Of a stretch of DNA of 64,000 nt, positions 3,028 through 24,607 are shown one piece after another. This stretch comes from Candidatus Nomurabacteria bacterium. Lineage in GTDB: Bacteria; Patescibacteriota; Patescibacteriia; Magasanikbacterales; UBA922. Each line of letters starts with the position of its first letter. The stretch's first letter is position 1. A model generated the notes under the pieces. The model made no database searches. It had not been told where the DNA came from and saw only the letters and a list, made by a program, of their open reading frames with translations. The stretch covers positions 4,952 to 68,951 of the forward strand of contig JACKFN010000004.1 in NCBI GenBank assembly GCA_020632445.1, given 5' to 3'. The translations under genes were made by a program, and so were the position numbers.

Positions 3028-3139
3028 TTTAAACAAATTTCCTTCCACATTCAGGCTTGACAGGGCCTGATTTTTTTGATATATTGCCACTACAGCGCAA
3101 AACGCCCGCGGGTCGATGTGGGCACAAGACAATATATTT

Positions 3140-8404: not shown

Positions 8405-8405
8405 T

Positions 8406-9008
8406 ATGGATAGGCGTGGAATAACACTTTTGGAAATAGTTATCTCAGTTGGCATCTTTGTTATGCTTACTTTTTCTATCGCTTATATACTTATTACTAC
8501 GCTCAAATCCAATGCCATTGTATGGGATCAGCTCCAAATTCAAAATGAAGGGAGAAAAGTTATTCAGCAAGTTGTAGATGAGGTCCGTCGGGCTGAAAGT
8601 TCCAGTATTGGAAGCTATGCCATTGCTACATCCTCAGCAAATGATTTGGTGTTTTATGCAAACATTGATGATGATGAGCTTCGGGAGAGAGTTCGATTTT
8701 GGCTTGATGGAACAGTGCTAAAAAGAAGTACGGTAAAGCCGTCTGGAGCTGACCTAGCGTACAACAACGCTAATGCATTTGTCGTTGAGCTTGCGCACAA
8801 TTTGACCAACGCTGCAGATGGTGAGGCGGTGTTTGAGTATTATGACGGTGACTATACTGGATCTGGTTCAGGATTAACCCAGCCGGTAAGTACGACCGCT
8901 GTCAGAGCGGTGAGAGTACAACTCAACTTTGAACGCGCCCCAGATAAGAGTCCGGAGCCATTGCGTGTGGAAGCATTTACGAGCATTCGAAATCTCAAAA
9001 CCAATTAA
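8406..9008 (+). CDS. type IV minor pilin / pseudopilin-like protein
   Basis: RRG|ITLLEIVISVGIFVM prepilin motif. The ATG at 8406 follows the upstream stop by 1 nt. Confidence 0.65.
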   Translation: MDRRGITLLEIVISVGIFVMLTFSIAYILITTLKSNAIVWDQLQIQNEGRKVIQQVVDEVRRAESSSIGSYAIATSSANDLVFYANIDDDELRERVRFWLDGTVLKRSTVKPSGADLAYNNANAFVVELAHNLTNAADGEAVFEYYDGDYTGSGSGLTQPVSTTAVRAVRVQLNFERAPDKSPEPLRVEAFTSIRNLKTN

Positions 9009-9013
9009 TTCAT

Positions 9014-10426
9014 ATGAAGTATTTCAAAAAACAATTTGCTCAGTTGGTGCATGATACCAAAGGAACCATGGTGGTTGTTATTTTGGTCTTTGGAGCAGTC
9101 GCAACCATGATCATTGCCAGTGGAATTTCAAGCTACGCGTACTTTGAGCATCGCGCCTCAAACAGAAAATACGATTCTGATTTAGCGCTGCATATTGCCG
9201 AAGCAGGTTTGAACTATTACAAGTGGCACTTGGCTCATAATCCAACGGACTACTATGACGGCAATGGCGGACCTTCAACGTCTACTGATCCGTATATCCA
9301 TGATTACTATGACAAAGACGGAAACGCTATCGGAAAGTTTGAGCTTTTGATAGAAGAGCCGGAGGTAGGGAGCACAGTTGTTGGTGTAGAATCCACCGGG
9401 TATACCAATTGGTCACCACACGTAAAGCGTACACTCTATGCACGGTATGGTTTTCCGAGTTTTGCTGATTATACGTTCTTGTCAAACGCCAACCTGTGGT
9501 TTAGTTTTTCCGCTATTGTTCATGGAGTAATCCATTCAAATGGAGGAATTCGTTTTGATGGTGAGACGGATTCTTGGGTAAAGAGTGCCAAAGAAACATA
9601 CAAGTACGAAAACCAGACACACAAGGGAGTTTGGGGTGGTGGTGGACCGAAGTCATTTTGGGTGTATCCTGTTCCACCTATTGATTTCGACTCAGTAAGT
9701 TCTGATTTGGCAGCTATCAGGGATGAAGCAGATGCTTCTGGTGTACATTTATTTTCTTCCGGTGCCGAAGGATATCACGTGGTGTTTTCTGGTGATACCT
9801 ACGACCTGTATCAGGTAGATACACGAGATTGCTATTATGGTGAGGGGCGTTGGAGGCACAAGTGGGGTGGTTGGTATTGGGACGGTGAAGTCTATTGTTT
9901 TGATATTGGAGATGAAACATTGATCAGTGAAGATAATGCTATCCCAGCAAGTGGCATGTTCTTTTCGGAAGATAACGTATGGGTGGAGGGGACCGTAGAT
10001 GGAAGAATTACCATTGGTGTGGGAAGGTTTCCTGTCCAAGAACCATATTTGAATATCATTATAAACAATAACTTAGTGTATAACGCCAAAAATGATGACG
10101 ACGTGGTTGGACTGATTGCACAGGGTGACATCATCGTCCCATACGAAACTCCAGATACCATGGAAATCAATGCCGCACTTCTCTCGCAGTATGGTTCAAA
10201 CTACCGTCCTTATTATGATGAAGATATGAAAGCAGAGCTTTCCATATTTGGTTCACAGATTTCGTACGAAGGTGGGGGATGGAAATACGTAAACGGATGG
10301 GGAAATGTCATTTCCGGATATGAGGATACGATCCACAGCTATGATGGAAATTTGAAGTACAATCCACCGCCAGGATTCCCGGTTGGAAATGTGCATGAGA
10401 TTCTCTCCTGGGAGGAAGTCGAGTAA
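9014..10426 (+). CDS. pilus-associated protein with an N-terminal TM anchor (PilX-like?)
   Basis: N-terminal hydrophobic helix GTMVVVILVFGAVATMIIASG with no Glu at +5. It is co-operonic with the two pilin genes. Confidence 0.4.
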   Translation: MKYFKKQFAQLVHDTKGTMVVVILVFGAVATMIIASGISSYAYFEHRASNRKYDSDLALHIAEAGLNYYKWHLAHNPTDYYDGNGGPSTSTDPYIHDYYDKDGNAIGKFELLIEEPEVGSTVVGVESTGYTNWSPHVKRTLYARYGFPSFADYTFLSNANLWFSFSAIVHGVIHSNGGIRFDGETDSWVKSAKETYKYENQTHKGVWGGGGPKSFWVYPVPPIDFDSVSSDLAAIRDEADASGVHLFSSGAEGYHVVFSGDTYDLYQVDTRDCYYGEGRWRHKWGGWYWDGEVYCFDIGDETLISEDNAIPASGMFFSEDNVWVEGTVDGRITIGVGRFPVQEPYLNIIINNNLVYNAKNDDDVVGLIAQGDIIVPYETPDTMEINAALLSQYGSNYRPYYDEDMKAELSIFGSQISYEGGGWKYVNGWGNVISGYEDTIHSYDGNLKYNPPPGFPVGNVHEILSWEEVE

Positions 10427-10506
10427 GGGCTATTTTCTTGAAAGCTTGTTGATATTTTGGTATAGTTTCTCACAAGAAAGCAGTTATTTACGCTAATTTT
10501 TTTACT

Positions 10507-11379
10507 ATGCAAAGCGTTCGAAAAGGAATTATTACGGTTGCAGGATTGGGTACTCGATTTTTGCCAGCTACCAAGGCCATGCCAAAAGAAATGCTTCCGG
10601 TGCTTGATAAGCCGGTTTTGCAGTATATTGTAGAAGAAATGGTCGAAAGTGGTATCAAAGAGATTATTTTTGTCACCAGTTCTCAAAAACGTCCGATTGA
10701 AGATCATTTTGACCGTGATAGAGATTTTGAAATTTTTTTGAAAAGCAAGGGAAAACTCAATCGGCTTCAACCACTCATTGATTTATGCGAGAAAGTACGA
10801 TTTTTTTATACAAGGCAGTCAGAGCCGCTCGGAAATGGACATGCCATGATGTGTGCCCGTGAGTTTGTTGGTGACGAACCATTTGCTTTTTCGGACGGAG
10901 ATTCTATTATTGACGGAGAAACACCAGTGGTCAAGCAACTCGTTAAGGTGTTTAACAAAAAACAGGCATCAGTCATCGGGGTACAGCGTATCGAAGATAA
11001 GAAAGCTATGATGAAGTATGGGAATGTCTATGGAACACCGGTTCGGGGTGAGTCAAGAACGTATCGCGTGAGTGAGTTTATTGAAAAACCGGCAATGTCA
11101 AAGGTATCACCACATGGGCTGATTGTGGGAGGAATGCGATACGTTTTCACCAAAGACATTTGGGCACATTTGGAAAAACAACGCGAAGGAAGAGATGGTG
11201 AGATATGGCTTGCAGACGCGGCCAATTCACTTGCCAAGAAAAAACCTTTTTTTGCCTATGAATACGATGGAATCTATTTTGATACCGGGGATAAACTCGC
11301 ACTGTTGAAAACAACACTTCATTTTGCCATGAAAGATAATGAAATGGCAGATGAAATTAAAAAATTTGTTTGTGGGTAA
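10507..11379 (+). CDS. galU: UTP--glucose-1-phosphate uridylyltransferase
   Basis: GIITVAGLGTRFLPATKAMPKEMLPVLDKPVLQYIVEE nucleotidyltransferase motif. Confidence 0.85.
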   Translation: MQSVRKGIITVAGLGTRFLPATKAMPKEMLPVLDKPVLQYIVEEMVESGIKEIIFVTSSQKRPIEDHFDRDRDFEIFLKSKGKLNRLQPLIDLCEKVRFFYTRQSEPLGNGHAMMCAREFVGDEPFAFSDGDSIIDGETPVVKQLVKVFNKKQASVIGVQRIEDKKAMMKYGNVYGTPVRGESRTYRVSEFIEKPAMSKVSPHGLIVGGMRYVFTKDIWAHLEKQREGRDGEIWLADAANSLAKKKPFFAYEYDGIYFDTGDKLALLKTTLHFAMKDNEMADEIKKFVCG

Positions 11380-12613
11380 AAGATTTTTACATTTTTTCGT
11401 ATTAAGTCTATTTATTGTAGTAGGTCTTTCGATGTATTTAGAAAATGCGTACGCCGCAGAGAAGCCAAGACTCATTGAGTGTGGTGTGCCAGGGGAGACG
11501 ACTCAATACACAGTCTGGTGGATGGGGGGAAAATATGAGAAAAGAGTTTGTCTCGATGTAAGGAAAGGTAAAACATCTTTAACGTATTGGGAGCTTTTTC
11601 GATCGGGGATATTTAGTGATCATGGTCCTTGGGAAGATGTGGATGCTTTCGTAAGTTACAGATGTGATGGGGCATTTTGGCGGAATCCTGGACTTCCTGA
11701 ATGGAGAAAGTTAAAGGATATTACTTTTCCACTAGAAGAAAAAATTGAAGTGGATGGAAAGAAGTGTGAATGGAGAGTTTTACTTGATACGGAAGATAGA
11801 CCAACATATATTTATTATGAGGGTGTGCAGTTGCCTTCTGAGGCAGAAGTTGCTGCTGCCGCGGGTTGTGAATGTAAAATTGAATATGCTGGGATTGGAG
11901 GAAATCCGGATCGCGGAGCTGTGTTTTTTGGTGGAGTTGCTAAGCTTCCATATGTTGATCATAACTCGATTCCCAAAAATCAGCTCTGTGGAGAAAGTAC
12001 CACCGTTACTATTGGTATAGGTCGATCAGGTCCTGCGAATGAATTGTTGAATTTAAGAAAGATTGCAGAGGCACAAGCGCTTGGTCGATCAAATTGTTGG
12101 CCAATGTATTTGAAAGAAAGTGCCGTTGCATCAAGGACTCTTCAGATCGATAATGAAGAACAGTGTAAGGCACTAGAGGGTGGACTTCAAAATTTTGCGG
12201 TCCCTGAATTTTCTATGAGACTCAATGGAATAGGAGAAGTGACAGTTCGAGGTGCATATCGTATTTTAATTAAAAGCTGTGAGATTGTTGGAAAACTTGA
12301 GAGTGCCCCTTCGGATAGTCAGCCAGTCGTTTCAGAAGTTCCTTTTTCAGTGCCAAGCCCATCTTCTCTGAACCGATTGGGGGATACCAATTTTCAGGGC
12401 CTTATTGGGAGGGCAATCAAGTTCGTTGTTCAGATGCTCGGATCCATTGCTTTTGTGATGTTTGTGTATGGGGGAATTTTGTTTATGTTTTCTGGTGGAA
12501 ATAGTAGCAAAGAATTGAAGGCCATTAAGACACTTGCTTATGGAGGTATAGGTGTACTGATTATACTTTCAAGTTATATTCTTGTTCAGTTTTTATTTAG
12601 TGCATTTTCATGA
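11339..12613 (+). CDS. T4SS-pilin-like (TrbC/VirB2-type) protein with a large N-terminal ectodomain
   Basis: Signal peptide. The C-terminal core LIGRAIKFVVQMLGSIAFVMFVYGGILFMFSGGNSSKELKAIKTLAYGGIGVLIILSSYILVQF is shared with 11 paralogs (helix - short polar loop - helix). Confidence 0.55.
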   Translation: MKWQMKLKNLFVGKRFLHFFVLSLFIVVGLSMYLENAYAAEKPRLIECGVPGETTQYTVWWMGGKYEKRVCLDVRKGKTSLTYWELFRSGIFSDHGPWEDVDAFVSYRCDGAFWRNPGLPEWRKLKDITFPLEEKIEVDGKKCEWRVLLDTEDRPTYIYYEGVQLPSEAEVAAAAGCECKIEYAGIGGNPDRGAVFFGGVAKLPYVDHNSIPKNQLCGESTTVTIGIGRSGPANELLNLRKIAEAQALGRSNCWPMYLKESAVASRTLQIDNEEQCKALEGGLQNFAVPEFSMRLNGIGEVTVRGAYRILIKSCEIVGKLESAPSDSQPVVSEVPFSVPSPSSLNRLGDTNFQGLIGRAIKFVVQMLGSIAFVMFVYGGILFMFSGGNSSKELKAIKTLAYGGIGVLIILSSYILVQFLFSAFS

Positions 12614-13431
12614 TGAAGAGATGTGGGCTTTGGTTTGTGTGTAGTTTACTCGGTGCATTTTTCGTGACTCCTCCGTTTGCCGTATCAAAGAATCTTTGTG
12701 AATGTTTTGTGGTTGTTGAGGGTGTTCAAGATCGATATGGAAACCCCGTCGGTAACCAGATTTGTAGATCAGAAGGACAGACCAAAGGAGTTTCTCAATT
12801 CGTCATAGAGCTTGGGTCTCTTTCAGGGGATACCGTACAGGTAAACTTAGAAGAAAAAATTACTCCATTGGTGAAAAATCTTTATGATGCAACCAATTAT
12901 GGGTCAAGAGCTTGTTTTCCAATTGAAGAGTCAAAGTATCGTCAGCATATAAACAAGTACATGATTGACGTAAGTAATGTGGATGTCTCTGAAGAATCTT
13001 GTGGGGATCAGTTGCATGGTCTAAGTGTAGCAGTACCGGTAAAAAGCACATCAAACGTAAATTACGATGGGTATTATGTGGCAAACCTTTCTTGTAAATA
13101 TGTTGTTAGAGAAGAAGATGGAAGTGAAGCAGTTATAATCCAAGAGGTTGGAGGGGGTTATAGGGAATTTCGTTTTCAGGACCAACTTTCCAAAGGCGTT
13201 GCCGGTTCTTTCCAGATGCTCATAGGAAAAGCGATTAAATTTGTAGTCGGAATGCTTGGATCTGTTGCGTTTATTATGTTTGTATATGGCGGAATTCTTT
13301 ATATGTCTTCGAGAGGAAATACTGACACGCAGAAAAAGGCGCTCCTTACATTGGCCTATGCAGGGATAGGAGTCGTAATTATTCTCTCAAGCTACATACT
13401 GGTGAAGTTTTTGTTTAGTGCATTTTCATAA
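12610..13431 (+). CDS. T4SS-pilin-like protein with an N-terminal ectodomain
   Basis: The C-terminal 90 aa are near-identical to the preceding gene (…FVYGGILYMSSRGNTDTQKKALLTLAYAGIGVVIILSSYILVKFLFSAFS). Confidence 0.55.
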   Translation: MMKRCGLWFVCSLLGAFFVTPPFAVSKNLCECFVVVEGVQDRYGNPVGNQICRSEGQTKGVSQFVIELGSLSGDTVQVNLEEKITPLVKNLYDATNYGSRACFPIEESKYRQHINKYMIDVSNVDVSEESCGDQLHGLSVAVPVKSTSNVNYDGYYVANLSCKYVVREEDGSEAVIIQEVGGGYREFRFQDQLSKGVAGSFQMLIGKAIKFVVGMLGSVAFIMFVYGGILYMSSRGNTDTQKKALLTLAYAGIGVVIILSSYILVKFLFSAFS

Positions 13432-14843
13432 TGCATGGTATAATAGGAGCAATTAAAAAACTTATGAAAAGGAAAATCATTGCCATATTTTCGCTTCTTG
13501 CTACCGTTCTTTTGACGGGCGGTCTTGGATGTAAGGGGTTGTCAGCCGACGAACAGGCGGCCATTCAGCCAATATCACTCACATACTGGACAGTATATGG
13601 TGATATTGATGAACTTCGGGCGCTTGCTGCAGAGTACAGCCAGCTGCGGACCTATGTCACTGTCAATATTCGTCAAATTCGGTATGATGAACTCGAAGAA
13701 AGATTGCTTACGGCGTTGGCTGATGATGTTCCACCGGATATTATCTCTATTCCAGCTGAATCTATCCCGCAGTATCTCAAGTGGCTCGAACCAATGCCAA
13801 GGCAGGTGAGTGTTTCCAACGTATACACCAAAGGGACCTATGCCAAGGAAACCGTCGTTGAGCGAGTGGTTCAGCCGATGCCAACCCTTCGTGAAATTGA
13901 AAGTACTTTTGTGCAGGCAGTCGTTGATGATGCGGTCATAGGTAATCAAGTATATGGTTTGCCACTTTCACTTGATACGCTGGCACTTTACTACAACAAA
14001 AATTTACTTGATCTTTCTGGTATTCCCACACCGCCACGAACATGGGATGACTTCCAAAAGGCTGTTGAACAGATTGTGCGTTATGATGTGAATGGAAATG
14101 TTACACAGGTTGGTGTTGGACTTGGGACAGGAAGCAATGTAAACAATGCTGCAGATATCCTTGCACTTTTGATGCTCCAAAATGGAGTAGAGCCAATTAA
14201 GGGAAACCGTGTGGCTTTTCACGCTGGAATGGAAAAAAATGTTTCACAAAACCATAAGACTTTTGAGTCGCTTCGTTTTTACACACAGTTTTCTGACAAA
14301 ACCAAAAAGGCATATACTTGGAACGAGAAACAAGAGCAAGCGCTTGATGCCTTCGTGCGTGGAAAGTCAGCATTTTACATAGGATATGCAAGGGATTTTG
14401 CGCAGATGTCACGCAGAGCGCAGGCGCTCAACCTAGAGGTTATTCCACTTCCTCAACTGAATCCAAATAGACCAACGAATGTAACGAGCTATTGGGTGGA
14501 AAGTGTTGTAGAAAAAAGTAACAAAGGAAATCATGCATGGGATTTTGTGAGATTTATGACCACGGAAAGAAACATTCGGAAGTACGTCGAGTCTACACGA
14601 CTTCCATCTCCAGTTAGGACACATGTTACTCTCTTTCAAGACGACGAAGTGCTCGGTCCATTTGCTCAGCAGGTACTCTTTGCCAAGACATGGTATTCTG
14701 GTCGTGACGCAGACAGAGCCAAGCGAGCATTTGCTGACTTGATAGAAGCATATCGCCTGCCTGGAGCAACAGATAAAAAGAAGCTTGAAAATGATGTAAA
14801 CGCTGTGAACTACGCGGCGCAGATCATCCAGCAGACATTGTAG
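13431..14843 (+). CDS. ABC transporter extracellular solute-binding lipoprotein (family 1, sugar-type)
   Basis: Lipobox LTGGLGC and a bipartite SBP-like sequence of about 450 aa. Confidence 0.65.
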   Translation: MHGIIGAIKKLMKRKIIAIFSLLATVLLTGGLGCKGLSADEQAAIQPISLTYWTVYGDIDELRALAAEYSQLRTYVTVNIRQIRYDELEERLLTALADDVPPDIISIPAESIPQYLKWLEPMPRQVSVSNVYTKGTYAKETVVERVVQPMPTLREIESTFVQAVVDDAVIGNQVYGLPLSLDTLALYYNKNLLDLSGIPTPPRTWDDFQKAVEQIVRYDVNGNVTQVGVGLGTGSNVNNAADILALLMLQNGVEPIKGNRVAFHAGMEKNVSQNHKTFESLRFYTQFSDKTKKAYTWNEKQEQALDAFVRGKSAFYIGYARDFAQMSRRAQALNLEVIPLPQLNPNRPTNVTSYWVESVVEKSNKGNHAWDFVRFMTTERNIRKYVESTRLPSPVRTHVTLFQDDEVLGPFAQQVLFAKTWYSGRDADRAKRAFADLIEAYRLPGATDKKKLENDVNAVNYAAQIIQQTL

Positions 14844-14861
14844 TTTCTTTGGATTATTACT

Positions 14862-15704
14862 ATGAAAAGATTCACGACCAAAAAAGTACTCTCAGCGGTG
14901 TTTCTGTTGCTCTTTTTTGTGATACCAACTGTAGCGGATGCTGCTGGACAATGTTTTTATTATAGTGTAAAGATTGACTACAGCAACGAAGGAAAGGCTA
15001 CCAAACAGTGTCGATCTGACATGACACAAGCAGAAAAGGATCGGTGTGAGCCGTTTACAGGCTGTGGATGTATTTTGGTGCTTGATGAGTCTCATGCGAG
15101 GTTACCTGGTGCCACTGCAAGGTGTATGGAAAACAAGGAAGGTGGATTGCAAGTGTGTGATAGTACGGGTGATATATCGACATGTAAAGATTATTTGAAT
15201 GCAGGAAGCGGTGCGCAGATAAATTCGATTGATGACTGTGTATCTATTTGTTCGACTCCGTTTGCTAATGGTTATGCGGCAGTAAAATGCACCTACTTTC
15301 GTCAGGGATTCAATTCGTGTGAAGACGTACTTGCCAAGTACCGTGCAGATTTGAACAAAGAAGAAACTTCCCCTGTTCCTGAAAGTCTCGAGCGAGGACA
15401 ACTGCGACTTCCAGACTGCGCTTACAGTAAAACCGGGTGCCGAAACATCAATGCACTTTTGGAACTGGTGATCAACATCGGCGACTGGATATTTGGATTT
15501 ATCGGTGGTGTGGCCCTTTTGGTGTTTGTCTATGGTGGGTTTGTCGTGGTAACATCATTTGGGAATGCTGAAAAAGTCAAAAAAGGATATAGTATTCTCG
15601 GAGCGGCGCTTATTGGTATGGCCATAGCGGTAAGTGCCTATTTACTCGTGGATTTCTTGCTTGATGCTCTTACGGTTAAGGAAGAGTTTAGAAGTGTAAG
15701 GTAA
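14862..15704 (+). CDS. T4SS-pilin-like protein with a Cys-rich N-terminal ectodomain
   Basis: 14 Cys in the ectodomain; the C-terminus carries the FVYGGFVVVTSFGNAEKVKKG...AYLLVDF core. Confidence 0.55.
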   Translation: MKRFTTKKVLSAVFLLLFFVIPTVADAAGQCFYYSVKIDYSNEGKATKQCRSDMTQAEKDRCEPFTGCGCILVLDESHARLPGATARCMENKEGGLQVCDSTGDISTCKDYLNAGSGAQINSIDDCVSICSTPFANGYAAVKCTYFRQGFNSCEDVLAKYRADLNKEETSPVPESLERGQLRLPDCAYSKTGCRNINALLELVINIGDWIFGFIGGVALLVFVYGGFVVVTSFGNAEKVKKGYSILGAALIGMAIAVSAYLLVDFLLDALTVKEEFRSVR

Positions 15705-15705
15705 T

Positions 15706-16437
15706 ATGAAGAAACAGATTTTGTATTTTGTGTATACTTTAGGAATTATCTGTGCAGTATTTTTTCCTATGGTCACATACGCCGAAATTGTTAAGTGTAC
15801 CTGTCGTGTAAATATTGTCCAGCCTGGTGATCTGTGTGTTGTAGAACATTCAGAGGTGTTTACCTTTGACACTGAGAATGGTGCAGTAGTTCCAATTGAT
15901 TTGCCATTAGACGGTTTTTTTGCAGATGCGGCAGATACACAAGCATGTATGAATGTCGCTCCTCCTTTTGATACCATATCTGGTGGGCAAACATTGCAAC
16001 TTGCTGTGGATAGCTGTAATGTAGATCAGGAGGAAGAAAAAGATGGGAATAGTTATACACTAAACTGCTTTTTCGAAGGACAAGATCCTGCCGCCGCGCC
16101 AGGCGCAGCAGCAGGCGCGCCAGGATCTGGCGCTGCTCCAGCCTCCGGTGGTGATGTCGGAAAAGAAGGAGAACTCCGCAAATTATCCCTTCCAAACCCT
16201 CTCCAAGAGGTAAATATCAACCGACTCATTGGGCGTATTATTGGACAGGCACTTGGCCTCCTTGGATCTATTTCACTTGCCGTGTTTGTGTATGGAGGAT
16301 TTATGTTTTTAACTTCTGCTGGTAACGATGATAAGGTCAAAAAAGGTACCAATGCCATGCTCTATGCCGCAGTCGGGGTATTCCTTGTTTTGGCAAGTTA
16401 TGTTATACTAAGGGAAGTATTTACTAAGGTATTTTAG
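15706..16437 (+). CDS. T4SS-pilin-like protein with a Cys-containing ectodomain and an Ala/Pro/Gly linker
   Basis: C-terminal core FVYGGFMFLTSAGNDDKVKKGTNAMLYAAVGVFLVLASY. Confidence 0.55.
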   Translation: MKKQILYFVYTLGIICAVFFPMVTYAEIVKCTCRVNIVQPGDLCVVEHSEVFTFDTENGAVVPIDLPLDGFFADAADTQACMNVAPPFDTISGGQTLQLAVDSCNVDQEEEKDGNSYTLNCFFEGQDPAAAPGAAAGAPGSGAAPASGGDVGKEGELRKLSLPNPLQEVNINRLIGRIIGQALGLLGSISLAVFVYGGFMFLTSAGNDDKVKKGTNAMLYAAVGVFLVLASYVILREVFTKVF

Positions 16438-16527
16438 GCCTGATTTTAGGTAAAGACATGGGATTCTTGACAAATTCGAGGCACCATGTCACTATATACC
16501 GTTATCTATCTAAACTTATGAAAGGGG

Positions 16528-16980
16528 GTGAGAAACATGCTTAGCAAATTGAGTAAGAAGGCAATGCTCGGATTCGGGGCTTTCCTCGTACTTGGAACAG
16601 CACTTGTTCCTGCTAGCGCAGGAGCTGCTGAAGTTGACGATGACGTTAACACTTTCTTTGGAGTATCATATGCACAAAAGTCAGGTCTTGGTAACCGTGA
16701 TGTGCGTGATACTATTGCCTCTATCATTCGTGTCGCTCTTTCACTTCTCGGTATTATTGCGCTCCTTATTATTCTCGCAGGTGGTTTCCAATGGATGACC
16801 GCAGGTGGTAATGATGATAAGGTTCAGGAAGCGAGAAAGCGTATGATTCAAGGTGTGATCGGTCTAGCGATCATCATGAGTGCATATGCAATCTCTATCT
16901 TTGTTATCGAACAGCTGTCAGAAGCAACCCAATCAGGTCAAGCTGATGCTGCAGATCTTGGTGCCGGTGACGAAGAATAA
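16528..16980 (+). CDS. T4SS-pilin-like protein (minimal form)
   Basis: Signal peptide plus LLGIIALLIILAGGFQWMTAGGNDDKVQEARKRMIQGVIGLAIIMSAYAI. Confidence 0.6.
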   Translation: MRNMLSKLSKKAMLGFGAFLVLGTALVPASAGAAEVDDDVNTFFGVSYAQKSGLGNRDVRDTIASIIRVALSLLGIIALLIILAGGFQWMTAGGNDDKVQEARKRMIQGVIGLAIIMSAYAISIFVIEQLSEATQSGQADAADLGAGDEE

Positions 16981-17034
16981 TATTTACCGGAGAGACGGGC
17001 GCACACTGGTGCGCCTCACTTTCTTGTAAACCCT

Positions 17035-17442
17035 ATGAAAAAACTCTCCCCATATATTTCTTTTGGGATCTTACTTCTTGTTTTGGCGGTTTTGTTTGCC
17101 CCTGATTTTGCGTTTGCTGGTGGACCAAATCTTGGTCTTGAGTTTGGGAGCAATACCGGACTGGGAAAATCAGATGTTCGTATTACAATAGCGCGAATTA
17201 TCAAGGTCGTGCTGAGCGTTCTGGGAATACTCACCCTTGTGCTCATCTTGTTTGCCGGATTCAAATGGATGACCGCTGGAGGAGATGAAAGCAATGTTGA
17301 CAGTGCAAAAATGATCATGAAAAATGCCGTCATTGGGCTGGCGATTGTGATGGTTTCCTACGCGCTTACAGACTTTATTCTGACGAATCTGTACAAGCAA
17401 ACCACTGGGTACGACTATCACGAGGAGGTATTTATACCGTAA
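17035..17442 (+). CDS. T4SS-pilin-like protein (minimal form)
   Basis: VLGILTLVLILFAGFKWMTAGGDESNVDSAKMIMKNAVIGLAIVMVSYAL. Confidence 0.6.
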   Translation: MKKLSPYISFGILLLVLAVLFAPDFAFAGGPNLGLEFGSNTGLGKSDVRITIARIIKVVLSVLGILTLVLILFAGFKWMTAGGDESNVDSAKMIMKNAVIGLAIVMVSYALTDFILTNLYKQTTGYDYHEEVFIP

Positions 17443-17538
17443 AAATAGATAAATTGAAAAATTGTTAAATGGTTACATTGAGGATCAATAAATAGCTATG
17501 CTATCATTTGTAATGGAATAGTGTAATCCTTTAGCAAT

Positions 17539-18486
17539 TTGTCAATTTCGCAATTTTCTTCTATGAACACAAAATTCAAAATACTTTTTCTTTCATTTAC
17601 GCTTACCATAGGAGTTTTGCTTGGTGCTGGTTATGCACTTGCCAACGATTATGGGCTTGGTGCTACCGCTGGAGCTGCCGGACTTACCAATTCAGCCGGT
17701 GGAAATGATGTGCCAACTATTCTTGGTAATGTTATTGGAACGGCACTATCAGTAGTATCTATTGTCTTTTTTATCCTCATGATTTATGGAGGATTCTTGT
17801 GGATGACTGCACACGGAAAAAGTGATCAGACAAGTAAAGCACTTGATACCATTATTGCTGCGGTGATAGGTATTATCATTGTACTTGGAGCGTATGCGCT
17901 TACCCAATTTGTGTTTGATAACATTGCTGGAGGTGGAGGCGCTGGCGGAGGTGTGGCACCTTCTGCGGCTGATCTTAAACCGAATGATACATCTTGCAAT
18001 ATTGATGCAGACTGTCAATCTGGTGCATGTGTTCTCTTTGCTGGAGCACCGACTAAGCTTTGTTCTGCGCCTGGTGCAATCGGAGAAGAATGCCAGGCAA
18101 ATAACCATTGTGTTACTGGAAATTGTCAGGGTGGCCAATGTGCAGATGGGGGGGCAGCGGCAGGCGCAGGCGCAGGCGCTGATGACCTAGCCGCACAAAG
18201 AAATCAGCTCAATGCAGAGCTTCAGGGAATGCTACAGCTTGTCGATGGTTTTGCTACTTGTATAGATGATGGTGATAACGTCGGCTGCGACGATGCTGAA
18301 GATGACTTCGGTGAACAGATAACTGAGCTTGGAACACTCATTGGCACGGCACAAGCGACGGATGATATTGCTCAAAAGGAGGCATCAAAGATACAGGTGC
18401 AAACTAAAATAGATGCAATGGCAGGGATGATGAGGAATGTGTGTGATCAAGATGTACTTAATTGTGCAGCGCGAGCAGGTAGGTAA
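17539..18486 (+). CDS. T4SS-pilin-like protein with a C-terminal Cys-rich extension
   Basis: Pilin core (IYGGFLWMTAHGKSDQ...GAYALTQF) followed by a Gly linker and CNIDADCQSGAC...CQANNHCVTGNCQGGQC. Confidence 0.55.
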   Translation: MSISQFSSMNTKFKILFLSFTLTIGVLLGAGYALANDYGLGATAGAAGLTNSAGGNDVPTILGNVIGTALSVVSIVFFILMIYGGFLWMTAHGKSDQTSKALDTIIAAVIGIIIVLGAYALTQFVFDNIAGGGGAGGGVAPSAADLKPNDTSCNIDADCQSGACVLFAGAPTKLCSAPGAIGEECQANNHCVTGNCQGGQCADGGAAAGAGAGADDLAAQRNQLNAELQGMLQLVDGFATCIDDGDNVGCDDAEDDFGEQITELGTLIGTAQATDDIAQKEASKIQVQTKIDAMAGMMRNVCDQDVLNCAARAGR

Positions 18487-18496
18487 AAAAGATTGT

Positions 18497-19273
18497 ATGC
18501 AGTTTCGTGTGAAAACAAAAACGTTTCTATTTTTAGTAGGGTGTTTAGCTCTTTCCATATTATTGTCCGTGCCGAGCTATGCCAAAAAATCCTTCGCCGA
18601 TCAGGGCGCAGCACTTGATACTGCCGTAAGCCGAACCGGAGTGAGTGGCGAAAACCTCACCAGTCTTCCTGCGTTTATTGGCAATGGGATACGAGCCGCC
18701 CTATCTCTTGTGGCGGTTATTTTCTTCATACTCATGTTTTATGGGGGAATGCGTTGGTTTACCTCTCGCGGAGAAGAAGATGCGGTCAAGCACGGGCGGG
18801 ATACCATATCTGCCGCACTCATTGGGCTTTTACTTGTCGTTGGAGCATACGCAGTTACGAATCTCGTACAAGATAGAATTATTAGCGGCAATCAGTCAGT
18901 TGGTGCTGGAGCAGGAGGGGATAGCGGAGGAGAGCCAGGAGCCCCGGGATGCTGTCTTGATGCTATCCAAGATGCAGGAGCGAACATTGGATTTTCTGGT
19001 GTAGACTTTGACCTCGGATTTTCTTTTGTATACGCAGCATATATTCGTGATAGACAGGGCTGTAGCACACGCCAAGCAGATGATGCTCTTGCTGGGGCTG
19101 AGGGGTCGTACTGGTTTTGGTTCCCGGAAACCGGTGGCGATATGAACAAGTGTAATGAAATTTTTATAACTTGCTTTGATGATGCTGTAGTTGGGCAAGA
19201 TAAAATTGCTGACAAAAATGCTTGCGCTCAAAATGTTATTCGGCAAAATGGCTGGCAAACTCCTACGAATTAG
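18497..19273 (+). CDS. T4SS-pilin-like protein with a C-terminal Cys-containing extension
   Basis: Core FYGGMRWFTSRGEEDAVKHGRDTISAALIGLLLVVGAYAV. The start was trimmed to MQFRV. Confidence 0.5.
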   Translation: MQFRVKTKTFLFLVGCLALSILLSVPSYAKKSFADQGAALDTAVSRTGVSGENLTSLPAFIGNGIRAALSLVAVIFFILMFYGGMRWFTSRGEEDAVKHGRDTISAALIGLLLVVGAYAVTNLVQDRIISGNQSVGAGAGGDSGGEPGAPGCCLDAIQDAGANIGFSGVDFDLGFSFVYAAYIRDRQGCSTRQADDALAGAEGSYWFWFPETGGDMNKCNEIFITCFDDAVVGQDKIADKNACAQNVIRQNGWQTPTN

Positions 19274-19285
19274 TAGAGCAAAATT

Positions 19286-19684
19286 TTGTATGCTATACTT
19301 GATCATATGAATATGAAAAAATTTGCAAAAAAAATAACTTCTTTTTTTATCGTGGCATTGCTTTTTGCCCCTACGATGGCCGGAGCGGTTGGTCTACAAA
19401 AGTCGGGTACGCTGCTTGGTCAAACGGCTTCTAAGACAGGAGTTGATACCAGTAAGCAGGTCGAAGATGTTGTTGGGGCCGGAATTCGAGCCGGGCTTAC
19501 CTTAGTGGGGCTAATTTTCCTTGTACTTATGGTCTATGCCGGGTATCTTTGGATGACAGCGCGTGGTGAAGAGTCACAGGTAGACAAAGCAAAAAAAATC
19601 GTCAGTACCTCTATCATTGGTCTTGTGCTGGTGGTAGGTGCGTATGCTATCACCTTCCTTATTACTTCTCGACTTGGGAGGTAA
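19286..19684 (+). CDS. T4SS-pilin-like protein (minimal form)
   Basis: VYAGYLWMTARGEESQVDKAKKIVSTSIIGLVLVVGAYAI. Confidence 0.6.
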   Translation: MYAILDHMNMKKFAKKITSFFIVALLFAPTMAGAVGLQKSGTLLGQTASKTGVDTSKQVEDVVGAGIRAGLTLVGLIFLVLMVYAGYLWMTARGEESQVDKAKKIVSTSIIGLVLVVGAYAITFLITSRLGR

Positions 19685-19722
19685 AGAAGACGGATAAATA
19701 GGACGTTTTAAATTGTTATACT

Positions 19723-20325
19723 ATGAAAAAATACCTCCTCATATTAGCTTTTGCTATAGGTGTGGCGCTTCCGTTTTCAGCTTCTGCTTTTGTTGATCTT
19801 GGAAAAGATCGCCTAACTGGTGGTGGAAGATCTGCAGGATATTCCGTAGATACTACCACAGAAACCACTTTTGCAGAGATTGTCGGTGAGGTTATCGCTG
19901 TCGCCCTTTCGCTCGTGGGTGCGATTTTTTTGGTTATTACGTTTTATGCAGGATTTCTGTGGATGACGGCACATGGAGACGAACAACAAGTCGACAAGTC
20001 AAAAAACATGATTCGTCAGTCTATGATTGGACTTGCGGTAGTACTGGGTGCTTACAGCATTACGAATTTTGTGGTTCCACGGCTCGTGGCAAAGACCACA
20101 GGTGGTGCTGCTTCTCAGGGCGGGGAACCTCTCAAACCGGGCGATACTCTTTGTTGTATAAAGACAGATGAAGGAACTGGAAACGAAGTATCACGACGCA
20201 TTGTGCAGGAAGTTTCGCAGTGTTATTCTAGTGGTTTTTTTGGAATTGGATCAGGTTGCTCTGATAATAATGTCGATGGTCATGAATGTCAGGCGATGGC
20301 AATGCCAGCAGAACAGTGTAAGTAA
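19723..20325 (+). CDS. T4SS-pilin-like protein with a short Cys-containing C-terminal extension
   Basis: FYAGFLWMTAHGDEQQVDKSKNMIRQSMIGLAVVLGAYSI. Confidence 0.55.
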   Translation: MKKYLLILAFAIGVALPFSASAFVDLGKDRLTGGGRSAGYSVDTTTETTFAEIVGEVIAVALSLVGAIFLVITFYAGFLWMTAHGDEQQVDKSKNMIRQSMIGLAVVLGAYSITNFVVPRLVAKTTGGAASQGGEPLKPGDTLCCIKTDEGTGNEVSRRIVQEVSQCYSSGFFGIGSGCSDNNVDGHECQAMAMPAEQCK

Positions 20326-20326
20326 T

Positions 20327-20938
20327 ATGAAAAAACTGAAGTACATTTTCATGGTTGCCATCTTTGGGATAAGCCTAGCACCGAGCGTGGCTTTTGCTGG
20401 AGTTGCCTCTGATCTCAACGCGCAACTTGGTGCAGGAGCCAAACGTGCTGAGTACGGAGAGGCGCAAGATCCAAGGAATTTGGTAGAAGAAGTGATTAAA
20501 GTCATCCTCGAGCTTACCGGGACTATATTTTTGGTGTTAATTATCATTGGTGGTTTTCATTTTTTTACCTCAGCGGGTGATGAAGAAAAAGCAACAAAGG
20601 GAAAGGCATATATTCGAAATTCCACCATTGGTCTTGCGGTGGTTTTGGCATCGTATAGCATTACGCTTTTTGTCGTTTCGCAGACACAGCAGGCGGTGAC
20701 TCCCGGGGGACCTGGTTCTGGTCCGCGAGATGTCGTTCCTCCAGGTACGGCTCCTGGCGAGATCGTTATGTGTTGTGATGTTGAATACCGTGGAATTCTT
20801 GTCGATGACTCAGAGACTTTTATTGTCCAGCAAGAAAGCGATTGTTACAGCCGATGTGATCGTCCAGGAGAAAATGGAGCCCCAACCACCTGTGTGGTTT
20901 CTCGTGTTACCAAAAATGAATGCGTAAATAGACACTAG
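20327..20938 (+). CDS. T4SS-pilin-like protein with a Cys-containing C-terminal extension
   Basis: The start was trimmed to MKKLKYIF right after the upstream stop. Core IIGGFHFFTSAGDEEKATKGKAYIRNSTIGLAVVLASYSI. Confidence 0.55.
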   Translation: MKKLKYIFMVAIFGISLAPSVAFAGVASDLNAQLGAGAKRAEYGEAQDPRNLVEEVIKVILELTGTIFLVLIIIGGFHFFTSAGDEEKATKGKAYIRNSTIGLAVVLASYSITLFVVSQTQQAVTPGGPGSGPRDVVPPGTAPGEIVMCCDVEYRGILVDDSETFIVQQESDCYSRCDRPGENGAPTTCVVSRVTKNECVNRH

Positions 20939-20945
20939 GGCCTTT

Positions 20946-21446
20946 ATGAAAGCACAAAAAAAACATAAATTCTACTTTGTACTTACACTTGTGATAATGG
21001 TAATTTTTTTGCTTCCCGAGGCTTCACATGCACTGAGCAGAGCCGTTGGCCAAACCAGTGCTGTTGCCGGCTCTCAAGGGGCAAATTTTGGTGAAGCTGC
21101 AGACCCACGCGTTGTCGTGGCAAAGGTTATCAAGAATATACTTGGGATCATGGGAATTGCTATGGTTGGTTTTTATGTCTATGCAGGCGTTCTTTGGACA
21201 TCTGCTGGCGGTAGCCAAGACCAGGTTGATAAAGCAAAAAAAATCATACGGTACAATGTTATCGGAACCATCATTATCTTTATGGCGTATAGCATTACGT
21301 ATTTTATATCTACTTCATTTTCTCGTGCGACAGTGGATAAACCTGAGGGGCAGTGGCAGATTGATATTGGCGAGGACCAAGATCGATTTGATAGGCCAAA
21401 TGTTTACCGGACACCAAGCAACGAAGCCTACTATAACACGAACTAA
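20946..21446 (+). CDS. T4SS-pilin-like protein
   Basis: VYAGVLWTSAGGSQDQVDKAKKIIRYNVIGTIIIFMAYSI. Confidence 0.55.
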   Translation: MKAQKKHKFYFVLTLVIMVIFLLPEASHALSRAVGQTSAVAGSQGANFGEAADPRVVVAKVIKNILGIMGIAMVGFYVYAGVLWTSAGGSQDQVDKAKKIIRYNVIGTIIIFMAYSITYFISTSFSRATVDKPEGQWQIDIGEDQDRFDRPNVYRTPSNEAYYNTN

Positions 21447-21478
21447 AAAACACCACGGTCCATTCGTGGTGTTTTTTT
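21445..21478. terminator. bidirectional rho-independent terminator
   Basis: aaaaaacaccacggtccattcgtggtgttttttt, between convergent genes. Confidence 0.6.
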
Positions 21479-22562
21479 ATCCTTCTATTATCATTTTCGA
21501 TGGACGCTTTTTGTAGGTAAGAGGGCTGTATAAAAAGTCTTTTTTGAGTATTTTTTCTATTGTATCTGCGAGGCTTTCTTTTTGTGAAATGTGCTTTCCC
21601 AAATGATGTTGCTCAATAAATTGGGCGTTGTCTATTTCCTGGCCAGGAATTGGCTCTATTGCCAAGAGAGGTTTTTGTAGTGTGATGCACTCGGATGTCG
21701 TAATTCCTCCAGGTTTAGAGATAACAACATCGCTGCATCGCATGAAATTTTGCATTTGATCCGTCCAGCCATGTGCTTGGTAATGGTGCTGTTTTGGGGC
21801 AAGGTTCTTTAAAGAAGCTTGGAGTTTTGCATTCTCTCCAGCGATGGCAACAATATTGCAGGGGTGTGAAATACCATCAATAGCTATACGGACATAATGA
21901 TCAAGAGGAATGAGTCCGTGACCACCAGCCAAAAAAAGGAGTGTTGGGAGATTATCTTTGAGGTTAAGCTGTTTTTGCAGGTCAGTGAGGCTATAGGTAT
22001 CATAAAATGCGCTTCGGATAGGGATGCCGGAGACAACTGTATTTGCTTTGGGGACAAACTTTTTGAGTTCATCGGAAGTCGATTCTGCAGCAACAAAATA
22101 GCGTCGCATGTTTGGGTGGGCCCAAAGGGCATGTACGCCATAATCAGTGAGAACAGCGTCAACGGGAATCGATATGCTACGATCTTTATTCATGTCTGAA
22201 AACACATGCGCTGGCAAAAAATGCGTAGCAATGATTCTGTCTGGTTTGTAGTCTGCTACAAAATCATTTAGCTTTTTAGCATGCATGATATGTACGAGTT
22301 TTGAAAGTTCACTGAGTCCTTTTGAGGCAGAAGGTCTATTCGCATTTTTGTATAAAAATCCCCAGAGCGTGGGGAAGCTTTTGATAAAAGATTCATAGGA
22401 GTTGGCAACCAGTTTTTTGGCTTTTCCACTTACCAGTTCCAGCAGGTCTATGTGTTTGGCGTCAATACCCTGGGCATGTGCCTCTTGTTCGAGTGCAACA
22501 GCGGCGCTTGTGTGGCCTGAGCCGGCTGAGACTGACAAAATAAGGATTCGTTCTTTTTTCAT
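21477..22562 (-). CDS. glycosyltransferase family 28 (MGDG synthase / UgtP-like diacylglycerol glycosyltransferase)
   Basis: N-terminus ILILSVSAGSGHTSAAVAL and a C-terminal GT-B fold with ISKPGGITTSE. Confidence 0.65.
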   Translation of the reverse strand: MKKERILILSVSAGSGHTSAAVALEQEAHAQGIDAKHIDLLELVSGKAKKLVANSYESFIKSFPTLWGFLYKNANRPSASKGLSELSKLVHIMHAKKLNDFVADYKPDRIIATHFLPAHVFSDMNKDRSISIPVDAVLTDYGVHALWAHPNMRRYFVAAESTSDELKKFVPKANTVVSGIPIRSAFYDTYSLTDLQKQLNLKDNLPTLLFLAGGHGLIPLDHYVRIAIDGISHPCNIVAIAGENAKLQASLKNLAPKQHHYQAHGWTDQMQNFMRCSDVVISKPGGITTSECITLQKPLLAIEPIPGQEIDNAQFIEQHHLGKHISQKESLADTIEKILKKDFLYSPLTYKKRPSKMIIEG

Positions 22563-22617
22563 ATACAGATAGTATACGTGAGAATGTTACTTGGCTCAAC
22601 AAAAAAACACGCACGGG

Positions 22618-22689
22618 GGTGACCAACGGGAATTGAACCCGTGATAAGGGTACCACAAACCCCTGTGTTACCACTACACCATGGCCACC
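22618..22689 (-). tRNA. tRNA-His (anticodon GTG) with encoded G-1 pairing to C73
   Basis: The reverse complement folds as a cloverleaf: acceptor GTGGCCA/TGGTCAC, anticodon loop TTGTGGT, T-arm ACGGG-TTCAATT-CCCGT, and an extra 5' G. Confidence 0.85.
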
Positions 22690-23646: not shown

Positions 23647-24270
23647 CTATTCGGTGTGGGTGTACAGGTGTGGCCACACGGCATAGCGGAGGTCAGCGTT
23701 TGTCTCCACCTCCATCTGAGCAGATAGAAAGACGGTTCGGTGGTCTGGGGGGAGTACACGCCTTATGCTCACCAGTGGTGAGCGTAGATAAGCGATAGGT
23801 TCTTCGATGACATTTCGTCCTCCGTTGGACGCATGGATCGCTGTGCCTTTCTCGGTCAGAAGTACCACATGTCCTACGGGGGGATCGACATGAGTCCAGC
23901 TGTGGTATCCCAGGGTGAAACCAAGATCGCCATCCTGAAATGGTTCGCCGTTTTTCAGCGCTTGGCCTTGCTGGCTTTGCTCTGCGCTAAAGCGAGGGAG
24001 CCAGACACCCATCTGGCTGTAAATCCACTTTACAAAACTCGAGCAGTCCACGAGCTCAGGGGCAAGGGAAGCACTGACATGCTTTACGTATTGACTCTGG
24101 CCGATTTGACCGCGTGCCATCTCGACGGGGTCGATTCGCTGCCAGGCGCATCCAATAGCCCCCAATGCCTCGTAGATCTGCCTGTCACTGAACTGTTTCC
24201 AGAAGTCGATATTTCGGTCGATCAGACATCGTCCTGCGCGAGCGTGAAAAAGCATAATTCCCCTGCGCAA
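23647..24270 (-). CDS. NlpC/P60 (C40) family peptidase, GC-elevated (about 55%)
   Basis: Catalytic Cys context DCSSFVKWIY plus downstream His (HVVLL). GC is clearly above the flanks. Lies between tRNA-His and tRNA-Arg. Confidence 0.6.
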   Translation of the reverse strand: MRRGIMLFHARAGRCLIDRNIDFWKQFSDRQIYEALGAIGCAWQRIDPVEMARGQIGQSQYVKHVSASLAPELVDCSSFVKWIYSQMGVWLPRFSAEQSQQGQALKNGEPFQDGDLGFTLGYHSWTHVDPPVGHVVLLTEKGTAIHASNGGRNVIEEPIAYLRSPLVSIRRVLPPDHRTVFLSAQMEVETNADLRYAVWPHLYTHTE

Positions 24271-24390
24271 TCGTGTTCCCCCAAAGGAGAAAGATGGTTG
24301 AGAGTTTGTTTTGCTTCGGCACTATTGAAGCAGAAACTCAGCAGGAAGTCAATGCAGAAAAAAAACAGCGTATTTTTGTGCTGTTTTTTA

Positions 24391-24465
24391 TGGTACCCCC
24401 GCTAGGAATCGAACCTAGAACCTCGGCTTAGAAGGCCAATGTTATATCCATTTAACTACAGGGGC
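24391..24465 (-). tRNA. tRNA-Arg (anticodon TCT), CCA encoded
   Basis: Reverse complement GCCCCTGTAGTTAAATGGATATAACATTGGCCTTCTAAGCCGAGGTTCTAGGTTCGATTCCTAGCGGGGGTACCA folds as a cloverleaf with anticodon loop CTTCTAA. Confidence 0.8.
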
Positions 24466-24565
24466 ATGAATTTTGCTTTAGCACTCGACATTGTCAGGGG
24501 CAAAGCATGGTGTTATCCATTTCCCGCCCAAGGCGGGTCCGCCTCGGGCGGAAACTACAGGGGCA
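24466..24565 (-). pseudogene. degenerate partial duplicate of the tRNA-Arg 5' half, interrupted by a 31-nt GC-rich double-hairpin insert
   Basis: GCCCCTGTAGTT[TCCGCCCGAGGCGGACCCGCCTTGGGCGGGA]AATGGATAAC… lies immediately 5' of the intact tRNA and does not fold as a tRNA. Confidence 0.35.
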
Positions 24566-24607
24566 TCTTGGGCAATGGGATCATTTTAGGGCAAAAGGAC
24601 CAAAAAG

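Follow-up and report, generated by a model that had tools for sequence, protein, structure and literature searches.

What a bacterium could do with twelve pilin-like genes in a row is the question raised by a 64-kb stretch of DNA (64,000 nucleotides of contig JACKFN010000004.1, here called the window) from a metagenome-assembled genome (MAG). Positions 11339-21446 of its + strand carry twelve co-directional open reading frames (ORFs), p1 to p12, each encoding a domain related to the VirB2-like pilins of type IV secretion systems (T4SSs), and the sole interruption of this array is the gene of a solute-binding protein. An initial annotation, made from the window alone, took the array for a repertoire of interchangeable surface filament subunits that provides antigenic or adhesive variation. 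Compared with related loci, it appears to be an ancient set of some eleven distinct parts in a fixed order, to which one recent duplicate, p2, has been added. With slightly better than even confidence, we hold that these parts make up a fixed, multi-part VirB2-like surface assembly, in which p5 would be the bulk subunit and the ectodomain-bearing members minor subunits, and which would be built by a T4SS encoded elsewhere in the genome.

The twelve proteins were compared with Pfam-A, in which the gathering scores are 26.6 bits for PF18895 (T4SS_pilin) and 27.9 bits for PF04956 (TrbC/VirB2). PF18895 ranked first for each of the twelve (E 2e-9 to 6e-5), its matches spanned most or all of the model in each of them, and ten scored above the cut-off (26.8-37.7 bits). 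The other two, p7 (25.0) and p8 (23.5), fell just below it, with PF18895 as their best match over about 60-67 of the 71 model positions. PF04956 matched the same residues below threshold in five proteins, with 23.7 bits for p5, 19.6 for p12, 15.2 for p9 and 14.5 for p7; the array proteins therefore appear related to this family, but would not be members by score. Many of their database homologues carry both Pfam families. A core of 74 residues could be aligned without gaps across all twelve, running from a hydrophobic helix through the loop motif GGFxWMTAGG...KxxxAKK to a second helix with GLAIVxxAY, and the family alignment contains four invariant core positions (three Gly, one Ala) and a conserved WMT motif. 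When a hidden Markov model (HMM) of the twelve cores was run against the window, it recovered exactly p1 to p12 and nothing else, while the family profile found 76,885 cluster representatives at E <= 1e-3 among 1.84 billion. The tandem paralogues, the core motif and the T4SS pilin family named in the initial annotation were all confirmed by these results. Its claim that every member has a signal peptide and a C-terminal core was right in its first half, as a hydrophobicity scan showed an N-terminal signal-like segment with an AxA-type site, followed by two more hydrophobic helices, in each of the twelve. The second half holds only for p1-p6 and p9; p7, p8, p10, p11 and p12 have the core near the N-terminus and continue beyond it for another 43-189 residues.

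Three other families were considered and rejected. For type IV pilins, there was no match to PF07963 and the class III signal G/(F,M)(T,S)L(I,L)E with Glu5 was absent from the first 50 residues of all twelve proteins. For sortase pilins, no LPXTG-like motif was present in any of the twelve. For holins, a single weak compositional match (Holin_9, E 0.002) stands against the signal peptides and the conserved chromosomal context.

An AlphaFold2 model of p6, built from a 37-sequence alignment, consists of a signal helix and a helical hairpin (residues 48-80 and 85-124), with a predicted local distance difference test score (pLDDT) >90 over most of the hairpin, and a single-sequence model of p1 was unusable (mean pLDDT 42.8). 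Extensions are found at the termini only, never inside the core, and Cys makes up 4.9% of extension residues versus 0.24% of core residues. The number of Cys residues is even in all eight of the Cys-bearing extensions in the window (10, 6, 14, 6, 12, 6, 6 and 6). Because the disulfide-rich domains occur at either end of the proteins and never in the loop, both termini would be outside and the charged loop inside, and a topology with extracytoplasmic termini and an inner charged loop fits both the placement of the extensions and the Cys pattern.

Core identity across p1-p12 is only 19-69% at the protein level (median 31%) and 34-64% at the DNA level, so they are old paralogues; duplication by the assembly is excluded by the DNA values. 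The longest DNA repeats in the array are 65-66 nt long at 73-77% identity, with no sign of gene conversion. A search of the array for a phase-variation switch found only short, imperfect inverted repeats of the chance type, and no long direct repeats or switch elements. The cores of p1 and p2 are 69% identical and both genes correspond to one single gene in related arrays, which makes p2 a recent duplicate of p1 and, on this comparison, the sole lineage-specific duplicate among the twelve.

The related arrays came from scanning GTDB species genomes once with the family alignment, which yielded a comparison set of 80 loci. Arrays are the norm among these loci: at least nine pilin-domain ORFs are present in 37 of them, with up to 16 in locus L018, 15 in L005, 14 in L007 and 13 in L001, and similar arrays recur in independent MAGs. 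To assign orthologues, the twelve proteins of the window were matched by reciprocal best hits to those of 37 related arrays. The result was strongly collinear: 755 ordered pairs were concordant and 13 discordant, and 28 of the 37 arrays were perfectly in order. In L015, for example, p1 and p3-p12 correspond to positions 1-11. Positional orthologues in the same order were found for eleven of the twelve paralogues, with reciprocal best hits for p3 in 28, p4 in 33, p9 in 22 and p10 in 33 of the arrays. Orthologue identity medians were 39-56%, depending on the paralogue; in the closest loci, the GalU-like protein encoded upstream of the array is 58-75% identical to that of the window and the solute-binding protein about 46%. 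As the orthologues are collinear in distant genomes, the duplications are older than the split between these genomes, and every copy has been retained since. Conserved order of this kind is the signature of long-retained, non-redundant parts.

The extension architecture also tracks array position across relatives. N-terminal extensions are long in p1 orthologues (median 249 residues, 10 Cys) and also present in those of p3 (median 133 residues, 7 Cys); p7 and p8 orthologues have C-terminal extensions of 76-97 residues with 6 Cys, and no Cys occurs in the short orthologues of p5, p6 and p9. When positional orthologues were aligned locally, the cores gave z-scores of 22-44 and the extensions 0-2.6. 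No extension similarity was found by BLAST except for one weak p7 match, and a homologue search with p1 among 5.8e9 proteins returned p1 itself only. Judged by these scores, the Cys-rich ectodomains are hypervariable between lineages and sit on a conserved hairpin scaffold. The idea of variation put forward in the initial annotation is retained for the extracellular extensions between lineages, and not supported for interchangeable copies within one organism.

One member of the array, p5, stands apart. It has the best PF18895 score (37.7 bits) and the best TrbC score of the twelve and the highest orthologue identity (median 56%). It is preceded by the only clear Shine-Dalgarno-like sequence of the array, AAAGGGGGTGA, before the ATG at 16537, and its flanks are the largest intergenic spacers in the array. 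The stem-loop downstream of it, at -21.2 kcal/mol, is the strongest in the array, and in 88% of the 24 orthologues of p5 a hairpin of <= -15 kcal/mol lies within 90 nt downstream. The downstream hairpin median was -20.7 kcal/mol for p5 orthologues versus -7.7 kcal/mol for the remaining paralogues, p12 left out (Mann-Whitney p about 1e-11); its position is conserved among relatives, its sequence is not. Because a strong stem-loop follows p5 in 88% of genomes, p5 is a candidate for the major subunit. We infer that the stem-loop acts as an attenuator, a terminator or a 3' mRNA-stabilising hairpin, which could give separate dosage control of the major subunit. The p4-p5 spacer (16467-16498) also contains a perfect TTGACA and a TATATA separated by 20 nt, which is outside canonical sigma-70 spacing; it was not called by the promoter scan and is given no weight here.

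From these observations, a mode of action can be proposed. Each protein would be exported by the Sec pathway, have its signal peptide cleaved and reside in the membrane as a two-helix hairpin, with its short charged loop inside and both ends outside. The bulk, or shaft, subunit would be p5, whose own ribosome-binding site and 3' stem-loop would let its dose be set separately, with p6 and p9 as further short subunits. Disulfide-rich domains would be carried on the outward N-terminus by p1-p4 and on the outward C-terminus by p7, p8, p10 and p11, while p12 has a short, Cys-free C-terminal tail. Having diverged beyond recognition between lineages, these domains are likely host-contact surfaces. 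A monoderm-type T4SS (VirB4, VirB6) encoded elsewhere in the genome would extract the hairpins and assemble them into a pilus-like surface structure for an epibiotic lifestyle, and the conserved sugar-type binding lipoprotein would be co-expressed with the pilins. Polymerisation into a pilus, the division into major and minor subunits, dependence on a T4SS and binding to a host are the parts of this proposal that we infer.

Several observations weigh against a pilus made by a T4SS. No VirB4, VirD4, VirB6, VirB3, VirB8 or VirB1 family was found in window ORFs of at least 110 amino acids (aa), in agreement with the initial annotation, which had seen no VirB4, VirB6 or VirD4 gene there; pilin genes beside virB4, virB6 and virB3, the arrangement of the T4SS locus of the cultivated Candidatus Southlakia epibionticum, are therefore not what the window contains. 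Around the 80 related arrays, no VirB4 was found among the flank genes checked within 10 kb, and no large flank ORF had a VirB4-like Walker A position. Instead of T4SS genes, what is conserved next to the arrays is a set of genes for type IV pilus (T4P) minor pilins, GalU, the binding lipoprotein and a lipid glycosyltransferase. The cut-off of the TrbC/VirB2 model was never reached (best 23.7 vs 27.9 bits). The family profile had a chance match alone (E 0.3) among solved structures and nothing specific to solved pilins, and fold matching was non-specific, since helical hairpins match thousands of structures. The candidacy of p5 as major subunit comes from expression signals, which are indirect. 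To our knowledge, no PF18895 pilus has been seen in any Patescibacterium, and the Pfam name is itself a prediction. Size is a further difficulty. In about 15 related loci, the gene of a pilin-domain protein of about 600-820 aa precedes that of a giant of 2100-3475+ aa, whose residues ~50-130 form the same hairpin, and a representative library contained single chains with 6 (P0063), 2 (P0069) and 17 (P0090) hairpins and one signal peptide each, which look like genuine concatemers rather than read-through artefacts. A 300-aa domain on one subunit, the giants and chains of 6-17 hairpins are hard to fit into a classical VirB2 polymer, and suggest that the hairpin could be a general anchoring and co-assembly module.

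Because the giants and the multi-hairpin chains suggest such a module, a main rival reading stays alive, in which the PF18895 hairpin is simply a two-helix membrane anchor or oligomerisation module. The products of the array would then form a hetero-oligomeric membrane complex, independent of any T4SS and tied in function to the neighbouring envelope and T4P genes, with adhesin-like ectodomains exposed on the cell surface. It would account for arrays without VirB4 nearby and for the invariant synteny with T4P minor pilins, GalU, the binding lipoprotein and the monogalactosyldiacylglycerol (MGDG) synthase; chains of several hairpins behind one signal peptide cannot act as free pilus monomers, and the fixed order of eleven distinct paralogues suggests a fixed stoichiometry. 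We nevertheless consider an anchor without a pilus rather unlikely. The family is related to TrbC/VirB2, the pilin array of a Saccharibacterium lies inside a T4SS cluster and is essential (Wang et al. 2023, PMC10633639), and a pilin gene was reported near virB4 in 1135 of 1948 assemblies (Quinonero-Coronel et al. 2025, PMC12102498). Sister genomes also encode VirB4: of seven sister Magasanikbacteria MAGs with arrays, six are listed as VirB4-positive in Table S1 of PMC12102498. Since VirB4 is missing near the arrays and yet present in these MAGs, the array and the T4SS ATPase are separate loci in this lineage. A short, Cys-free subunit with its own dosage signals also fits a filament shaft better than an anchor.

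The interchangeable repertoire proposed initially, with pilus subunits expressed alternatively or in mixtures so that one organism varies its antigens or adhesins, draws on the many paralogues with different, extremely fast-evolving ectodomains, on the recent p1/p2 duplication with different ectodomains and on the analogy with the VirB2 paralogue arrays of Bartonella and Anaplasma T4SSs, which is cited in PMC12102498. The comparison with related arrays does not support it, and we now regard it as unlikely. Eleven paralogues keep their order and orthology where even GalU of the closest loci is only 58-75% identical, whereas interchangeable copies would be expected to turn over and homogenise; the repeats give no hint of gene conversion, architecture is fixed by position, and the genes are packed head to tail, with overlaps or gaps of at most about 100 nt, and lack switch-type inverted repeats or other switch elements. 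That the array is an artefact, made of assembly duplications or of compositional Pfam matches to arbitrary transmembrane helices such as small holins, is barely credible. Weak sub-threshold matches to unrelated membrane families (Holin_9, DctQ and others) and the many structures matched by any helical hairpin could be taken that way, but the core DNA identities are far from those of assembly duplicates, PF18895 is the top family for all twelve proteins over most or all of its model, the gapless core keeps its four invariant positions and WMT motif, and the profile finds its tens of thousands of representatives, with the array recurring in independent MAGs. The fixed multi-part assembly is therefore the reading that we prefer, and the array and its neighbours are listed with it in mind in Table 1.

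Table 1. Coordinates of the pilin-domain genes p1-p12, the two stem-loops and the neighbouring genes in the 64-kb window.
Feature	Position	Strand	Description
T4P minor-pilin-like trio (599, 214, 470 aa)	6605..10426	+	N_methyl motif, prepilin-type N-termini; context, not of the pilin family
GalU-like nucleotidyl transferase	10507..11379	+	PF00483 E 1.5e-25; homologue in 42/80 loci; directly upstream of the array
p1	11339..12613	+	424 aa; signal peptide, ~305-aa N-terminal ectodomain with 10 Cys, C-terminal hairpin core at residues ~347-420; PF18895 29.6 bits
p2	12610..13431	+	273 aa; N-terminal ectodomain with 6 Cys; PF18895 33.3 bits
Sugar-type solute-binding lipoprotein	13431..14843	+	470 aa; SBP_bac_8/SBP_bac_1 E 3e-27; between p2 and p3
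p3	14862..15704	+	280 aa; N-terminal ectodomain with 14 Cys; PF18895 27.9 bits
p4	15706..16437	+	243 aa; N-terminal ectodomain with 6 Cys, Ala/Gly/Pro-rich linker; PF18895 29.5 bits
p5	16528..16980	+	150 aa (147 aa from ATG at 16537); short, Cys-free; PF18895 37.7 bits
Stem-loop 3' of p5	16997..17016	+	G+C-rich, GGGCGCAC-ACTG-GTGCGCC, then T-rich tail; from scan for terminator-like sites
p6	17035..17442	+	135 aa; short, Cys-free; PF18895 35.2 bits
p7	17539..18486	+	N-proximal core and 189-aa C-terminal extension (Gly-rich linker, 12-Cys module, acidic helical tail); PF18895 25.0 bits
p8	18497..19273 (listed ORF from 18437)	+	Core and ~132-aa C-terminal extension with 6 Cys; PF18895 23.5 bits
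p9	19307..19684 (listed ORF from 19286)	+	125 aa from ATG at 19307; short, Cys-free; PF18895 30.2 bits
p10	19723..20325	+	Core and 82-aa C-terminal 6-Cys knob starting CC; PF18895 28.9 bits
p11	20327..20938 (listed ORF from 20168)	+	Core and 86-aa C-terminal 6-Cys knob starting CC; PF18895 26.8 bits
p12	20946..21446	+	Last array gene; core and 43-aa Cys-free tail; PF18895 27.4 bits, TrbC 19.6 bits
Stem-loop, 13-bp	21445..21477		Between the convergent p12 and glycosyltransferase genes
MGDG-synthase-type glycosyltransferase	21477..22562	-	PF06925 E 4e-24; homologue in 21 related loci; downstream, convergent

Three of the listed ORFs (p8, p9 and p11) start too early, and their likely starts are those given in Table 1; for p7 the likely start is the ATG at 17563. 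The 13-bp stem-loop that follows p12 is a probable bidirectional terminator closing the array. Two of the proteins were found, at 100% identity, in the NCBI database. H6758_02905 is p6, and H6758_02875 is p1 in a version of 393 aa that begins at Met32 and has thereby lost the signal peptide (window 11339-11431), whereas the full-length p1 ORF overlaps the end of galU by 41 nt. Both entries are labelled 'Candidatus Nomurabacteria bacterium' and lie on a contig of 124 kb. The array proteins and the locus as a whole have their closest relatives among Magasanikbacteria, Uhrbacteria and other MAGs, and Magasanikbacteria belong to the class ABY1 according to PMC12102498. The source is a Magasanikbacteria-like MAG of the Patescibacteria, or candidate phyla radiation (CPR), which agrees with the initial annotation. 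Many of the related loci, including L001, L003, L004 and L006-L008, come from third-party annotation MAG records titled 'uncultured Gammaproteobacteria bacterium'; the locus in them is of the Patescibacteria type and the titles are evidently wrong.

The gene string around the array is near-invariant wherever the flank reaches far enough: the 599-aa, 214-aa and 470-aa genes, GalU, sometimes one pilin, the binding protein, 8-15 pilins, and the MGDG synthase or a GT2 glycosyltransferase. In a sister subgroup (L013, L023, L025, L027 and similar loci), an extra pilin gene lies past the MGDG-synthase/GT2 gene and before NYN and polynucleotide phosphorylase (PNPase), and the convergent gene splits the array. 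A promoter-like site was called by the promoter scan at 10438-10466, ahead of the GalU-like gene. The genes at 6605-8404 and 8364-9008 encode prepilin-type N-termini and PilB is encoded at 566-2398 on the minus strand, so that the separate type IV pilus of the initial annotation was upheld for pilB and the prepilin-like genes; the pilC that it included could not be retained, as no T2SSF match was found in the window. The large ORFs of the window encode PilB, isoleucyl-tRNA synthetase, PepA, GyrA, FtsH and the 599-aa type IV pilus-associated protein. Conserved flank families of the related arrays, none of them belonging to a T4SS, were PNPase, NYN, signal peptidase I, histidyl-tRNA synthetase (HisRS) and GT2.

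The solute-binding protein has a homologue at the equivalent place in 47 of the 80 loci (L001-L071), and its nearest solved structures are maltose and other sugar binding proteins (E 1.5e-13). Its signal helix is followed by a conserved G[FLV]GC[KS]G, whose Cys is suggestive of a variant lipobox. The window yielded no ABC permease, and the protein may therefore not serve transport.

Loci with giant proteins include L019, L021, L022, L024, L029, L037, L044, L050, L055, L060, L075, L078 and L080, where the pilin-domain protein ahead of the giant has roughly 600-750 aa. An example of the giant architecture is L021 (2627-4696 and 4707-14345). Signal peptidase I and HisRS genes are the conserved flank families that co-occur with the giant-protein loci, and in L022, L044 and L055 the giant is followed by a 1100-aa laminin-G/ConA-like protein.

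Elsewhere in the window, three islands of about 1.2 kb (4771-5853, 35850-37109 and 51913-53151) have a G+C content of 54-55%, compared with 43% in the background, and each contains an ORF lacking a Pfam match; that at 4771-5853 begins like a lipoprotein (LVGC). These islands are possible foreign insertions. A tyrosine recombinase gene of the XerC/phage-integrase type lies on the minus strand about 3 kb downstream of the array, by a tRNA-Arg gene and an NlpC/P60 hydrolase gene (23647-25558), and could be a housekeeping XerC/D or the edge of an integrated element. Transfer RNA genes are located at 22615-22689 and 24391-24465. Adjacent convergent ATP-grasp genes, YheCD-like on the plus and RimK-like on the minus strand, were found at 28433-30246, and two genes of TrmB-family regulators at 53721-54569 and 62068-62829.

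The proteins of the TrbC/VirB2 family, such as VirB2 of Agrobacterium and TrbC of RP4, belong to diderm T4SSs. They start with a long Sec signal peptide, and the mature protein, of about 70-75 residues, consists of two hydrophobic helices joined by a short charged loop. The window proteins share the long Sec signal peptide and a two-helix, charged-loop core of comparable length. They differ in having a monoderm host, no VirB5 or cyclase partner, no adjacent virB operon, twelve paralogues versus one, and large terminal ectodomains. In a tblastn search with p5 among 72,556 plasmids, no match was found.

A second comparison, of function only, is with type IV pili and the pseudopili of type II secretion, in which an abundant short subunit is accompanied by an ordered operon of distinct minor subunits, some with tip or adhesin domains. 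The array likewise has one candidate for an abundant short subunit and distinct others in a fixed order, and a T4P minor-pilin cluster upstream. It is unlike these pilin sets in that its members have no class III signal peptide, N-methylation motif or Glu5, and are hairpins rather than lollipops.

The array is less of a novelty than the initial annotation assumed. VirB2-like pilins of Patescibacteria have been collected by means of PF18895 and PF04956, with arrays of 2-11 genes in 383 assemblies and a mean pilin identity of 25% (maximum 54%) (PMC12102498), and Ca. S. epibionticum ML1 has a six-gene array of predicted pilins in its T4SS cluster, which is essential (PMC10633639). A 2025 review describes the pilins of S. 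epibionticum as the first hint of a pilus made by a monoderm T4SS (PMC12857230). As such arrays are already published, the locus adds no new kind of system. It resembles them in the PF18895 family, the phylum, the tandem arrangement with one non-pilin gene, the low identity (25% mean versus a core median of 31% here), and in being chromosomal with no relaxase nearby. It differs in having twelve genes versus a maximum of 11, and a top identity of 69% (p1/p2) versus 54%. The published ceiling of 11 is a matter of sensitivity, because the family HMM finds up to 16 in related loci. Further differences from the arrays described there are that the window array lies inside a conserved block of T4P minor-pilin, GalU, binding-lipoprotein and MGDG-synthase genes and that most of its members have Cys-rich ectodomains; unlike the array of S. 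epibionticum, it is not beside virB4. The conserved gene order, the p5 stem-loop and the hypervariability of the ectodomains are not mentioned in those parts of PMC12102498 and PMC10633639 on which this comparison draws. The arrays of Bartonella and Anaplasma, as cited in PMC12102498, are similar in that they are tandem T4SS pilin genes of host-dependent bacteria for which surface variation has been proposed. They are read as variable and partly interchangeable, whereas paralogue order and orthology have been kept over deep divergence here, which indicates distinct roles.

A more far-reaching reading can be formulated, although it is a speculation that we think unlikely to hold. In it, the roughly eleven distinct Magasanikbacteria paralogues, long retained and fixed in order, would co-assemble in a defined stoichiometry into a new kind of surface organelle, in which p5 would form the shaft or core and be crowned by fast-evolving, disulfide-rich domains for host recognition. 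This organelle would be uncoupled from VirB4 and co-inherited with the T4P minor-pilin cluster and the sugar-binding lipoprotein, and would not be a homopolymeric pilus of the conjugative type; the chains of 6-17 hairpins and the giants would be variants of the same principle.

We know of no one who has shown a pilus made by a monoderm T4SS. Few functions have been shown to be indispensable for a cultivated Patescibacterium to live as an epibiont, and the T4SS with its pilin array is among them; the role of the patescibacterial T4SS has been described as completely unknown (PMC11665869). The comparative picture of distinct, ordered parts, a candidate major subunit, hypervariable disulfide-rich tips on a conserved scaffold and an accompanying sugar-binding lipoprotein turns this into a sharper question. 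The ectodomain-bearing members are candidate determinants of host specificity and the p5 orthologue a candidate filament component, and the ordered paralogues argue against antigenic variation as the default reading of such arrays.

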